A stretch of DNA of 64,000 nucleotides. Source: Cyanobacteriota bacterium (GTDB lineage Bacteria > Cyanobacteriota > Vampirovibrionia > JBFMGH01). The position numbers and the translations under genes are program-made. The DNA is taken from contig JBFMGH010000608.1 of NCBI GenBank assembly GCA_040752795.1, positions 22,209 through 86,208 of the forward strand. Direction: 5' to 3'. Every line of letters starts with the position of its first letter. Within the stretch, counting starts at the first letter, position 1. Shown piece by piece: positions 928-8,087 of the stretch. Below the pieces are notes generated by a model. The model had not been told where the DNA came from. It worked only from the letters and a program-made list of their open reading frames with translations, and did not search any database.

Positions 928-1815
928 ATGATCAAAAATTATTTAAGCCTCCTTAGACCGCATCAATACTTAAAAAACCTCTTTATTTTCATGCCTTTAA
1001 TATTCTCATTGAATATTACCAATATTGAACTGGCCCTAAAATCTTTAATAGCATTTATTGCTTTTTCTTTAATTGCAAGTGCAATCTATATTATTAATGA
1101 TATCAAAGATCTAAATGAAGATAAAAACCATCCAACAAAAAAACTAAGACCTATTACATCCGGCAAGATAACTGTCAACAACGCATTAAAAATAATGTCT
1201 GTACTTCTTTGCTCCGGCCTTTCTATAGCTTACATATTGAACATATACTTTTTACTTATTTTGTCGGGCTACCTGATAATGAATCTTTTATATTCTTTCA
1301 AACTAAAACATATAGCAATTATTGATATTATTATAATAGCAGTAGGGTTTGTACTAAGGGTATTTTCTGGCGCAATAGTAATTAATGTTCCTGCTTCTGA
1401 ATGGTTAATTATTATGACATTCCTGCTAGCTCTATTTCTTGCTCTTGCAAAAAGAAGAGATGACGTTTTACTTTCGACCACAGAAAATATTCAAACACGA
1501 AAAAATATTGATGGATATAATCTTGACTTTATTAATGCTTCAATGATTATAATGGCCTCTATTGTAATAGTTGCATATATAATGTATACCGTATCAAATC
1601 AAACTCTTGAAAAATTTAATTCTGAATACTTATACCTCTCAACAATTTTTGTAATAACTGGTTTGATAAGATATTTACAAATAACTCTTGTCGAAAACAA
1701 TAGTGGAAGCCCTACAAATATTCTTATTAAAGATCGCTTCTTGCAGATAACTATTATTTTATGGCTTGTTACTTGCTCTTTAATGATATACTGGAACAGA
1801 ATAATAGGATACTAA
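928..1815 (+). CDS. UbiA-family polyprenyl-phosphate phosphoribosyltransferase (decaprenyl-phosphate 5-phosphoribosyltransferase-like)
   Basis: 295 aa polytopic membrane protein. It has the UbiA Asp-rich motif NDIKDLNEDKNHPTKKLRPITSGKIT, typical of Rv3806c-like DPPR synthases, and a second D-rich patch (KRRDD). It is first in an operon with DprE1/DprE2-like genes. Confidence 0.65.
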   Translation: MIKNYLSLLRPHQYLKNLFIFMPLIFSLNITNIELALKSLIAFIAFSLIASAIYIINDIKDLNEDKNHPTKKLRPITSGKITVNNALKIMSVLLCSGLSIAYILNIYFLLILSGYLIMNLLYSFKLKHIAIIDIIIIAVGFVLRVFSGAIVINVPASEWLIIMTFLLALFLALAKRRDDVLLSTTENIQTRKNIDGYNLDFINASMIIMASIVIVAYIMYTVSNQTLEKFNSEYLYLSTIFVITGLIRYLQITLVENNSGSPTNILIKDRFLQITIILWLVTCSLMIYWNRIIGY

Positions 1816-1827
1816 AAGGCAAAACAA

Positions 1828-6900: not shown

Positions 6901-8087
6901 TTTCTGTTATAGGATTCGGACGAGTTTACGAAAACGAGGCTGTTATGATCCAGGACTTTGTCTTTGTCTGGGGACTTTTCCTTTTTATCTTCGTAAGCTT
7001 ATTTCTCTTTGAAATATTTAAAGAAACACGAAAAAAACTTCATAAGAACTATTCTTACAACATCTCTTCCCTCTTTAGCTGGATTTTTATAACTTTTTTA
7101 ATACTTCTTTTATGTTTATTAATAATGCATTCAAACTTTTCTAGTTTAATTTTTTCTTCTTATTTTGAGGTATTAACATCTTCTTTAAATAACCCTATTT
7201 TAGAGTTTAACCGGTATTTATTAATGATATCTGACTATTTTGGCGCATATACCACTATTATTTTTAATGCTGTTTTAATTATATTAGCTATTGCAACATT
7301 TATAATTCTTAAAGAAAAGATTATAAAACTTATTTGCGGGTTAATAACTTTTGGTTTAATCATCACTTTCTTCACAGAAACATTCTTTATTTATGATCAT
7401 ATGAATACTATATTCAAATTTTTCCTTGAAGTATGGTATATTTTTGCTATTTGCGCCACGTATACACTCTATTATATCTTTAAACCTTATTACTATGCTT
7501 TTAGAGCTTCTGCTAATATTTATATAGAATCTTTAAAACTCATATGGTTTATACCTGCTGCTGTTCTCCTTTCACTTGCATGTTTTACATCTATAGCTGC
7601 TGTTGTTGGCTTTAGTTTTACAGATAAAACCAATGGGTATAAACCAGTAAAAACCATTAACGGATTAGCATACCTCAAATACAGTAATCCATCAGAGTAT
7701 CAAGCAGTACAATGGATTAACAAAAACATAAAAGACAAGAATTGTGTAATATTAGAGGCAACTGGTATTAGCTATAGTGATTACACACGAATAGTTACAA
7801 ATACTGGTATTCCTACTGTTGCAGGATGGACCCATCATTTAACTCAACGTGCAGTAGAAAGAGATGATATAAAAAGAAGAGTTGAAGACATAGAAACTAT
7901 TTATTCAACAGAAGACACAGAAAAAGCCTATAACTTACTAAATAAATATCGCATAAATTATGTTTATATAGGACAACTAGAACTAAAAGACTATGGATTA
8001 AAAGGCATTAATAAGTTTAAAAACAACCCTGACAAATTTAAACTCATTTACTCTAACAAACAGGTAAAATTTTACGAAGTTCTTTAA
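3984..8087 (+). CDS. Giant polytopic GT-C-like membrane glycosyltransferase candidate with YYYxG motif (DUF2298/Chlor_Arch_YYY-like), ArnT/PMT-like N-terminal module
   Basis: 1367 aa with more than 25 predicted TM segments. The N-terminal loop carries an HPDER motif after TM1, as in ArnT/PMT GT-C enzymes. The central region carries NYYYFGY. A soluble C-terminal domain (about 7.6-8.08 kb) follows the last TM. It is last in the operon with the DPA-like genes. Confidence 0.6.
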   Translation: MENSKTLKIWQFICRHKYIILVACILVLAAILRYSGYNWDHLYSLHPDERALDQAGNRIDFMELNLDPGLYAYGSLPIYLACIVNFICAKLLPHFMLLQNYLVIGRLISATAGVLTVLFVYLIGNKLYNKETGLISSFLLAIAVIHIQNSHFATVDILLTFFITATIYYLIDIYYSKCSLKTYLIVSILIGLALAVKASAAPLVIMFFICHVINLRRTKKALKLKPYLFFGLCGVIALIINFISQPYAYLNMQQYLNSVIEQINMQKHANSCFLQQYVGTPFLIYYFKELTLRCLGLPLGIFSIISFFIAIFYSIIHPVKSKHVILLLWALPYFITINTFESKFLRYMLPLIPFYCLFTGYYFLALLGYLKTININKFFRYTLTTLFLGYTLFYALAFFSIYMKPHTFIESSMWFYKNIPANSVILSQHWEEGFPQHIRSIDRKEYEIVALELYEHFQCETEDDRKSEYLAKHLENGEYIVAPTRRLYGATYNVKERYPITTKYFDLLFTNRLGFKLIKDFYSYPSILGIEFNDDTSDESFSVYDHPKVLIFKKVESYSKEEYKQMLEEEGELSLTKDQALSIHKKEAEKEITYSIVDEIAIIIIWIVLLELLSIVGFVISHIIFKNNNGSIIFFSHLLGILVLCYTTWILASLHFIKYNFFFILIIFLILLSLSFYYLYINKNSVLVWAKNNIDTIALSKLALISCFLIFLIFRTLSPEIFSGEKPMDFGIFNNLIIIDHLPPDEIWFSGNKLNYYYFGYFMFATLAKLTFIPGFFAYNLALGTIAGLTFCASCGVLYLLTRSYYYSLLAGIFTVFLGNISAIRLLMEKPIDYHLFWATTRVIPKTINEYPLWSFIFGDLHGHVCVMPIFIFLIYVGVFAFLRIVNKETITLPVILLTGFILGTISITNSWDFPGASATLFVCFTLALILTTKEYKPSKNLHYLLKQYSLLFCIGFSSFIWFLPYWLSTKKVSVIGFGRVYENEAVMIQDFVFVWGLFLFIFVSLFLFEIFKETRKKLHKNYSYNISSLFSWIFITFLILLLCLLIMHSNFSSLIFSSYFEVLTSSLNNPILEFNRYLLMISDYFGAYTTIIFNAVLIILAIATFIILKEKIIKLICGLITFGLIITFFTETFFIYDHMNTIFKFFLEVWYIFAICATYTLYYIFKPYYYAFRASANIYIESLKLIWFIPAAVLLSLACFTSIAAVVGFSFTDKTNGYKPVKTINGLAYLKYSNPSEYQAVQWINKNIKDKNCVILEATGISYSDYTRIVTNTGIPTVAGWTHHLTQRAVERDDIKRRVEDIETIYSTEDTEKAYNLLNKYRINYVYIGQLELKDYGLKGINKFKNNPDKFKLIYSNKQVKFYEVL

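Follow-up and report, generated by a model that had tools for sequence, protein, structure and literature searches.

A putative lipid-linked arabinofuranose cassette upstream of a predicted double GT-C protein in a Vampirovibrionia genome

We analyzed a 64,000-nucleotide (nt) stretch of contig JBFMGH010000608.1 (hereafter, the window), from a metagenome-assembled genome labeled Cyanobacteriota, and report on four co-directional genes near its start. Three of them (hereafter, the trio) encode homologs of the enzymes of a ribose-to-arabinose lipid-donor pathway, and the fourth encodes a membrane protein of 1367 amino acids (aa; hereafter, the giant) with two predicted glycosyltransferase-C (GT-C) modules. 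In the reading that we favor, the trio forms a cassette that makes polyprenyl-phosphate-arabinofuranose (polyprenyl-P-Araf), and the downstream double GT-C protein uses it in the periplasm; we consider the chances of this combined reading to be about even. That trio and giant are functionally linked is plausible, although unproven and partly contradicted by comparative data. The four genes are as follows.

928-1815, + strand: UbiA-family phosphoribosyltransferase gene (295 aa), homolog of Rv3806c/decaprenylphosphoryl-5-phosphoribose (DPPR) synthase
1828-3162, + strand: gene for a DprE1-like flavin adenine dinucleotide (FAD)-dependent polyprenylphosphoryl-ribose 2'-oxidase (444 aa)
3164-3895, + strand: gene for a DprE2-like short-chain dehydrogenase/reductase (SDR; 2-keto-pentofuranose reductase; 243 aa)
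3984-8087, + strand: giant membrane protein gene (1367 aa), with PMT_2 and DUF2298 modules

A preliminary description of this DNA had listed the same four open reading frames (ORFs), and its coordinates, strands and gaps were all reproduced here. The gaps are 12 nt (UbiA-dprE1), 1 nt (dprE1-dprE2) and 88 nt (dprE2-giant). Because of their strong family matches and thousands of homologs, all four ORFs can be taken as real genes rather than chance ORFs. The motifs quoted in that description were also found, NDIKDLNED and HPTKKLRP in the UbiA-family protein and HPDER and YYYFG in the giant.

The UbiA-family protein exceeded the NCBIfam cutoffs for decaprenyl-phosphate phosphoribosyltransferase (NF008977, 251.1 bits, cutoff 234) and for NF008978 (210.3, cutoff 207). 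It also matched Pfam UbiA and had no additional Pfam domain in its 295 aa. The top PDB match was Rv3806c (8j8j) with an E value of 1.3e-41 over residues 5-285, and the next family followed at 4.5e-8. Two motifs lie close together in this protein.

1096-1122, + strand: NDIKDLNED (NDxxDxxxD motif), residues 57-65 of the UbiA-family protein
1129-1152, + strand: HPTKKLRP motif, residues 68-75 of the same protein

The segment NDIKDLNED-KN-HPTKKLRP aligns with NDVRDVEADREHPTKRFRP of 8j8j. These results suggest that the protein is a polyprenyl-phosphate 5-phosphoribosyltransferase homologous to Rv3806c, which is predicted to convert phosphoribosyl pyrophosphate (PRPP) and polyprenyl phosphate to polyprenyl-P-ribose-5-phosphate.

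The oxidase aligned over its full length with the NCBIfam DprE1 model NF053785 (residues 4-443 to model positions 3-448) and scored 450.2 bits, below the cutoff of 500, a near miss expected of a non-actinobacterial ortholog. DprE1 chains of Mycobacterium smegmatis and M. tuberculosis in the PDB were matched with E values of 3e-96 to 7e-90, the next family being at 1e-8. The preliminary description had named an affiliation with unrelated oxidases, such as gulonolactone oxidase, as the case that would speak against it; the PDB scores were 326 bits to DprE1 versus at most 38 bits to any other family. We also rejected a gulonolactone/sugar-lactone oxidase identity at the profile level, where those families reached at most 56 bits versus 450 bits for the DprE1 model. 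The equivalent of Lys418 of M. tuberculosis DprE1, which we take to be the catalytic lysine, is kept (LYLTKDTR aligned to LYTAKDSR). At the position of Cys387, presumably the covalent benzothiazinone site and presumably not needed for catalysis, the oxidase has Ala (GYTLALDFPIK versus GWNVCVDFPIK). This substitution predicts natural insensitivity to benzothiazinones and is no argument against oxidase function.

The SDR gene begins 1 nt past the stop codon of the dprE1-like gene. Its product scored 163.3 bits with the NCBIfam DprE2 model NF053786, below the cutoff of 250, and passed PRK07102 (326.8, cutoff 267), a model named merely 'SDR family oxidoreductase'. The top PDB match was DprE2 (21gq_C; E 7.7e-24, full length), and the next SDR was at 2.9e-14. 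Profile and PDB comparisons thus agree with the earlier assignment of the three enzymes as Rv3806c, DprE1 and DprE2 homologs, the top solved match of each being its mycobacterial namesake. We conclude from sequence that the three proteins are bona fide homologs of the enzymes in the ribose-to-arabinose lipid-donor pathway, which would make polyprenyl-P-D-Araf.

The giant is composed of two membrane parts, each followed by a soluble domain.

3984-5198, + strand: membrane part of module 1 (residues 1-405), PMT_2/ArnT/oligosaccharyltransferase-like GT-C fold (Pfam, AlphaFold2, Foldseek)
4119-4133, + strand: HPDER (residues 46-50) with invariant columns H46-P47-D48-E49, putative first periplasmic loop
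5199-5753, + strand: soluble alpha/beta domain of module 1 (residues 406-590), predicted periplasmic (AlphaFold2 secondary structure)
5754-7619, + strand: membrane part of module 2 (residues 591-1212), DUF2298/Chlor_Arch_YYY, GT-C fold (Pfam, TIGR03662, AlphaFold2, Foldseek)
6153-6173, + strand: GEKPMDF of module 2, with invariant E725 and D729
6249-6263, + strand: YYYFG of module 2 (residues 756-760)
Residues 860-864 and 1140-1146: DLHGH and MNTIFKF, both of module 2
7620-8087, + strand: C-terminal soluble domain of module 2 (residues 1213-1367), predicted periplasmic (Foldseek)

Pfam PMT_2 matched residues 99-239 with a score of 51.6 (cutoff 26.1). Residues 600-1366 matched DUF2298 (PF10060; 272.1 bits, cutoff 27.8) and TIGR03662 (396.4, cutoff 300.25). 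These three families were the only Pfam/NCBIfam matches at E <= 0.01, so that no Emb/Aft family was matched, and Pfam gave no TPR match. A single-sequence search of the giant against the PDB gave no match at E <= 1, and a profile search with the family alignment, which was swamped by a C-terminal NHL propeller of distant homologs, gave no GT-C sequence match. Using alignments of 62 homologs, the giant was modeled with AlphaFold2 as two separate halves.

The module 1 model (residues 1-606) had a predicted local distance difference test score (pLDDT) of 90.6. Foldseek related it to AglB, STT3, ALG12/9, ArnT, PglB and Pmt, with E values down to 3e-9. Its 34 PDB matches at E <= 1e-3 were GT-C enzymes (oligosaccharyltransferase, ArnT, PMT, ALG and DPY19) and the GT-C-like GPI-transamidase subunit PIG-U. 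The alignments to oligosaccharyltransferases extend over about 650 columns and hence take in the soluble domain, which carries conserved HW(D/E)EGFP and DESxSVYDHPK motifs with invariant W430, D538, E539, S540, H546, P547 and K548. The module 2 model (residues 591-1367) had a pLDDT of 91.6, and its sole significant PDB matches were the C-mannosyltransferase DPY19, the arabinosyltransferase AftA, STT3 and AglB (E 2.8e-7 to 1e-4, template modeling (TM) score up to 0.57). The C-terminal domain of module 2 is similar to its globular counterpart in archaeal AglB (3vu0: probability 1.0, target-normalized TM score 0.54, E 0.03) and contains a conserved GW..H..QR motif at residues 1281-1289, of which G691, W692, H695, Q698 and R699 (numbering of alignment A2) are invariant.

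H46, P47, D48 and E49 of module 1 and E725 and D729 of module 2 are invariant across the 62 homologs, in line with the earlier proposal of HPDER as a catalytic loop. Topology was deduced from charge distribution. The D48/E49 loop would be periplasmic, as it follows the first transmembrane helix after a K/R-rich cytoplasmic N-terminus, and so would the E725/D729 loop, which follows four transmembrane helices after the periplasmic domain of module 1. The models thus describe the giant as a fusion of two unrelated GT-C modules, each with an invariant acidic loop and its own periplasmic domain. The preliminary description had expected one GT-C protein; the fold was found, in two modules rather than one. 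That the DUF2298 module is a GT-C-fold enzyme is our own reading, suggested at the level of the fold, and its catalysis is predicted. Origin of the two modules by internal duplication was rejected, as the hhalign probability was below 1% both for the membrane parts and for the soluble domains.

On this basis, we propose the following pathway. The UbiA-family enzyme and the DprE1-like and DprE2-like enzymes would constitute a minimal donor cassette. The 5-phosphate would be removed by a phosphatase encoded away from the operon, after which the DprE1-like oxidase and DprE2-like reductase would invert C2' to yield polyprenyl-phosphate-D-arabinofuranose. A transporter would flip polyprenyl-P-Araf across the membrane, and on the periplasmic face the giant would arabinofuranosylate an envelope glycan, lipid or protein. 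We infer that the four genes are co-transcribed, that the cassette yields Araf and that the giant is the transferase consuming it; which of its modules would use the donor is likewise inferred. The host envelope is presumably of the Gram-negative type, with undecaprenyl rather than decaprenyl phosphate.

The gene arrangement supports this proposal: the co-directional spacing is tight, no terminator-like site lies between the genes, the order recurs equally tightly in relatives whose giant is 50-56% identical, and in other phyla the trio usually has a polytopic GT-C-type protein at its side. No terminator-like site or hairpin was seen in the 88-nt gap before the giant. Promoter-like matches across this AT-rich region (about 31% G+C) were at chance level, with 33 found and 38 expected. 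Upstream of the trio is a gene for a small cyclic nucleotide monophosphate (cNMP)-binding protein.

DprE1-like proteins are extremely abundant: all of the at least 8000 scored candidates had E <= 1e-20, many with 56-66% identity. A scan with one genome per species yielded 51 DprE1-like loci from Kiritimatiellales, Acidobacteriota, Bacteroidota, Deferribacterales, Campylobacterota, Gracilibacteria, Thermodesulfobacteriota, Ignavibacteriales, Chloroherpeton (Chlorobiota), Planctomycetales, Pseudomonadota and Prochlorococcus. DprE1 and DprE2 were paired in 49 of these loci, and homologs of all three enzymes were within the fetched locus in 41, almost always adjacent. Genomes with the trio come from more than 12 phyla. 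The polytopic flankers of the trio elsewhere include PMT_2 (in Campylobacterota), GtrII-like, DUF6311 and TPR-bearing membrane proteins, many others being without a Pfam match. The flanking by such proteins (PMT_2, GtrII, DUF6311) in other phyla matches the published three-component pentofuranose model (PMC11127046). No relative of either giant module was detectable within 10 kb of the 51 loci.

Two of these arrangements deserve a description of their own. In an unclassified bacterial assembly (L045, 12206-20819), five tandem paralogous GtrII-like genes of about 517-529 aa, with nine transmembrane helices each, lie directly downstream of the trio and may form a diversified set of pentofuranosyltransferases. 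In Prochlorococcus sp. AG-335-A05 (L057, 6701-11326), a UbiA-like gene is followed by a fusion of a HAD phosphatase with LPG_synthase_TM and then by DprE2-like and DprE1-like genes. As a candidate, this fusion could supply both the 5-phosphatase and the flippase for a lipid-linked pentose, and it suggests that LPG_synthase_TM proteins may act as flippases in such systems.

The published scheme of Kelly, Whitfield et al. (2024) is widespread: a polyprenyl-phosphoribose synthase makes a lipid-linked pentofuranose, the identity of which depends on optional epimerases (DprE1/E2 in the case of Araf), and the scheme is completed by a flippase and by a GT-C that varies between systems and transfers the sugar extracytoplasmically (PMC11127046). 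Our locus resembles these systems in that a UbiA-type synthase and a GT-C are encoded together, the GT-C has an extra, predicted periplasmic domain, and DprE1/E2 occur, as they do where the sugar is Araf. It differs in lacking a phosphoribose phosphatase, whether fused or adjacent, and a MATE, GtrA or SMR flippase in the operon, in having as its GT-C a fusion of PMT_2 and DUF2298 modules, and in its host, a Vampirovibrionia metagenome-assembled genome (PMC11127046). The preliminary description had stressed the occurrence outside Actinobacteria. The host label bears this out (the giant and the oxidase are 100% identical to proteins of a metagenome-assembled genome labeled Cyanobacteriota, and their closest homologs after these are labeled Vampirovibrionia); as a novelty it does not hold, because the trio is spread over more than 12 phyla and the scheme matches the published one (PMC11127046). 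What is new relative to that scheme is the uncharacterized two-module GT-C partner and the lack of a linked flippase and phosphatase.

Compared with the mycobacterial and corynebacterial decaprenylphosphoryl arabinose (DPA) pathway (Rv3806c, Rv3807c, DprE1, DprE2 and Rv3789, with Emb/Aft transferases), homologs of three enzymes are shared and module 2 is similar in fold to AftA. Unlike that pathway, the locus has no Rv3807c-type phosphatase or Rv3789 homolog nearby, the giant has no Emb/Aft Pfam match, and the benzothiazinone-target Cys is replaced by Ala. The arabinosylation of group IV pilin in Pseudomonas aeruginosa (PsPA7_6245-6249 with TfpW/TfpX) is comparable in that the phosphoribosyltransferase, DprE1 and DprE2 are a minimal donor set in a Gram-negative bacterium; its large polytopic GT-C-like transferase, for which more than one activity has been proposed, can be likened to the giant. 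In P. aeruginosa and many phyla, a GtrA-like gene lies between the phosphoribosyltransferase gene and dprE1 (seen in locus L145), whereas the gap in the window is 12 nt.

Several observations weigh against our proposal, and the first group comes from close relatives. In ten giants of the Vampirovibrionia type (45-58% identical), the gene adjoins gyrB in all. Three loci (L001, L004 and L142; giants 50-56% identical) have the trio between the cNMP-binding gene and the giant, in the same tight order as in the window, and in four more relatives the trio probably also occurs on the contig of the giant. It is absent within the 10-kb flanks of the gyrB-adjoining giant in three others (L140, L143 and L144). 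In a crude neighbor-joining tree, the giants without the trio appear at scattered positions, and only 7 of the 1367 positions distinguish trio-linked from trio-less giants, none of them in a conserved motif. These seven weak positions support a donor-specific residue signature neither way. Moreover, synteny among close relatives reaches unrelated flanking genes; the whole neighborhood being syntenic, conservation of gene order is not independent evidence of functional coupling. We conclude that the trio is a variable accessory cassette inserted upstream of a conserved resident GT-C, and not part of an ancestral four-gene operon. Operon conservation, which the preliminary description had offered as a check, is therefore partial: the order of trio and giant recurs in some relatives and fails in others, and the conserved feature is the adjacency of giant and gyrB. 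The site of presence or absence is between the cNMP-binding gene (or an HD-GYP response regulator gene) and the giant. An additional, divergent stand-alone PMT_2 gene (675-697 aa) occupies this site in L001 and L144.

The second group concerns the family of the giant elsewhere. The PMT_2-DUF2298 fusion is widespread, with at least 1603 matches scored, including Binatia, Acidobacteriota, Desulfobacterota and Vecturithrix. Distant fusions are 29-36% identical over the full length and share HPDE, EKPMD, YYYxG and MNTxFKF with the giant of the window; most of them end in a C-terminal NHL beta-propeller (TRIM71/Thin/PknD-like), which the latter does not have. None of three distant genomic fusion loci had DPA genes nearby. 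DprE1/E2 were found near none of 80 metagenomic DUF2298 loci, of which 52 also had a PMT_2 module and one had a distant UbiA homolog. The recurrent neighbors at the 80 loci were glycosyltransferase family 4 (GT4; 13 loci), Methyltransf_11 (11), LPG_synthase_TM flippase-like (9) and glycosyltransferase family 2 (GT2; 5) genes. Thus, such fusions elsewhere have methyltransferase, GT4, GT2 and flippase-like genes as neighbors, while the giant of the window stands beside a DPA cassette. The genes flanking the fusion in Binatia are a stand-alone DUF2298 gene and a PMT_2-NHL gene (L005, 8001-15497), and two or three DUF2298 modules occur in tandem in many metagenomic loci. In the literature searched, we found no described function for DUF2298/PF10060/TIGR03662/YYY proteins and nothing relevant on glycosylation in Melainabacteria.

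Both groups bear on the strongest alternative, which we regard as possible but clearly the less probable account: that the genes adjoin without a donor-transferase relation, the giant being a housekeeping envelope GT-C that acts on another polyprenyl-P sugar, and the Araf donor being used by another GT-C elsewhere in the genome. It would explain why the giant is kept beside gyrB with or without the trio and with no trio-correlated change in conserved motifs, and why distant family members, whose neighbors are GT4, methyltransferase, LPG_synthase_TM/flippase-like and GT2 genes, never adjoin DprE1/E2. The extra stand-alone PMT_2 gene in L001 and L144 would suit it as well. It accounts less readily for the placement of the trio exactly upstream of the co-directional giant, from which it is separated by 21-88 nt in no fewer than four lineages, or for the immediate neighbor of the trio in other phyla, usually a presumed GT-C. 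Furthermore, no other GT-C gene was found within the 64-kb window, and tblastn with the stand-alone PMT_2 of L001 detected no homolog there.

The third group concerns missing parts. The operon has no 5-phosphatase, and the window ORFs checked (a subset was scanned with Pfam) included no HAD or PAP2 protein. Nor does the operon have a MATE, GtrA or SMR flippase, none of which was recognized in the parts of the window checked. In P. aeruginosa, the phosphoribosyltransferase, DprE1 and DprE2 are the minimal requirement, and the phosphatase and GtrA-like protein are dispensable (preprint 10.1101/2020.04.19.049825). Since that trio suffices, the lack of a phosphatase and flippase is not disqualifying. 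The sole flippase-like protein (TIGR00374) of the parts checked is encoded beside a GT2 gene in another cluster.

55533-56237, - strand: GT2 gene, polyprenyl-phosphate glycosyltransferase-like (Pfam Glycos_transf_2; AglJ/ArnC/PpgS-like NCBIfam matches below cutoffs)
56250-57272, - strand: gene for the flippase-like membrane protein (Pfam LPG_synthase_TM; TIGR00374 86.9, cutoff 43.2)
57232-61727: UDP-sugar-modifying genes, encoding a UXS/ArnA-like SDR, UDP-glucose 6-dehydrogenase and a DegT/ArnB/PseC-like aminotransferase

The cluster at 55533-61727 holds two GT2 genes resembling polyprenyl-phosphate glycosyltransferases and is Arn-pathway-like without a GT-C of its own in the window. Its GT2 and LPG_synthase_TM families recur as neighbors of DUF2298 genes in other phyla. 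The cluster could credibly serve the giant as an alternative or second source of donor, which counts against our proposal and agrees with the incidental adjacency considered above: the GT2 and flippase-like pair lacks its own GT-C and stands next to the UDP-sugar-modifying genes listed.

If both sources feed the giant, one module would act on polyprenyl-P-Araf and the other on a second polyprenyl-P-sugar supplied by the GT2/flippase-like cluster, be it a hexose, xylose or aminopentose, so that a mixed glycan is built or decorated in one complex and trio-less relatives keep the second activity only. We consider this arrangement unlikely, and scarcely less so the statement that the giant is a bifunctional tandem GT-C whose YYY module is a true glycosyltransferase and of which, in these Vampirovibrionia, one module has been recruited for polyprenyl-P-Araf while the other uses a second lipid-linked sugar. 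The two modules, unrelated at the profile level (hhalign below 1%) and each with its own acidic loop and periplasmic domain, fit a division of labor, as do two lipid-linked-sugar pathways with one GT-C gene in the window, and a giant that stays unchanged whether or not the trio is present is consistent with an add-on activity. However, both donor assignments are putative, the second cluster is 47 kb away, and the fusion is widespread where no trio adjoins, so that both modules can function without Araf.

Protein glycosylation of the TfpW type, in which the giant would arabinosylate pilin-like or S/T-rich proteins of the window, is quite improbable. Such genes do exist in the window, as the preliminary description had pointed out in suggesting them as acceptors.

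42721-44634: gene for a prepilin-like protein with N-terminus GFSMVELAISLL (637 aa; no Pfam match)

The best fold matches of module 1 (AglB, STT3, PglB and Pmt) modify proteins, the C-terminal domain of module 2 resembles that of AglB, and many distant homologs have an NHL beta-propeller, typically a protein- or ligand-binding domain. Nevertheless, the candidate substrates lie 24-35 kb away and are unlinked to the operon, and the fold matches also include lipid- and glycan-modifying GT-Cs (ArnT, AftA and ALG enzymes). The tfpW gene is linked to pilA and its product has TPR repeats, whereas the giant gene is linked to gyrB, with no adjacent pilin gene, and its product has no TPR or TfpW-type architecture. 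The suggested acceptors thus gained no specific support.

Other observations on these genes are as follows. The prepilin-like gene is divergently paired with a gene for a 422-aa bacterial Ig-like (Big_5) protein (42721-46024), and genes for a PilB-like ATPase and response regulators are located at 50-54.5 kb. A low-complexity secreted-looking protein encoded at 38805-40175 (+ strand) has long Ala/Ser tracts, a MQMFMQMFMQMM repeat and several DxNGDGK calcium-binding-like repeats (weak EF-hand matches). Another, encoded at 31719-32585 (- strand), is rich in S, T, N and A and has no family match.

Least probable of all is that the cassette makes another lipid-linked pentose (polyprenyl-P-ribofuranose, the 2-keto intermediate or another epimer): the scores are under the NCBI equivalog cutoffs for DprE1 and DprE2 (450 versus 500 and 163 versus 250) and related systems make ribofuranose or xylofuranose through other epimerases (PMC11127046), but the alignments are full-length with DprE1 and DprE2 best by wide margins, the catalytic Lys is kept, the oxidase-reductase gene pair has the same order across phyla, and Araf-containing glycans elsewhere correlate with DprE1/E2 homologs (PMC11127046).

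If the giant does use the product of the cassette, this would provide the first concrete, testable donor hypothesis for the large DUF2298/YYY family of many bacterial and archaeal phyla, and would document two different GT-C glycosyltransferases, fused in tandem, that work with a lipid-linked pentofuranose. It would also predict D-arabinofuranose in the envelope, in an arabinofuranose-containing glycoconjugate, of Vampirovibrionia, non-photosynthetic relatives of cyanobacteria. Gain and loss of the trio before an unchanged GT-C would illustrate a route to glycan diversification that Kelly et al. have proposed, "swap the donor cassette, keep the transferase". An incidental adjacency would make the locus one more instance of a widely distributed, described donor pathway.

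Downstream of the giant, on the opposite strand, is the following block of genes.

8114-14730, - strand: gyrB, a DciA-like gene, recF and dnaN

The cumulative GC skew has its minimum near 18-20 kb, which suggests that the replication origin region is inside the window; no dnaA was noted. At 23430-24218 (- strand), a 262-aa ORF matches LarC-type nickel insertion proteins along profile positions 1-234 only (of 375) and may be a truncated or split gene. At 22595-22720 (+ strand), the N-terminal extension of an L25/Ctc-like ORF (..GAWPSGKAAGFGPAIQRFESFRPS..) looks like a translated tRNA gene; the true start of this ORF is probably downstream, and 22595-22720 may encode a tRNA.

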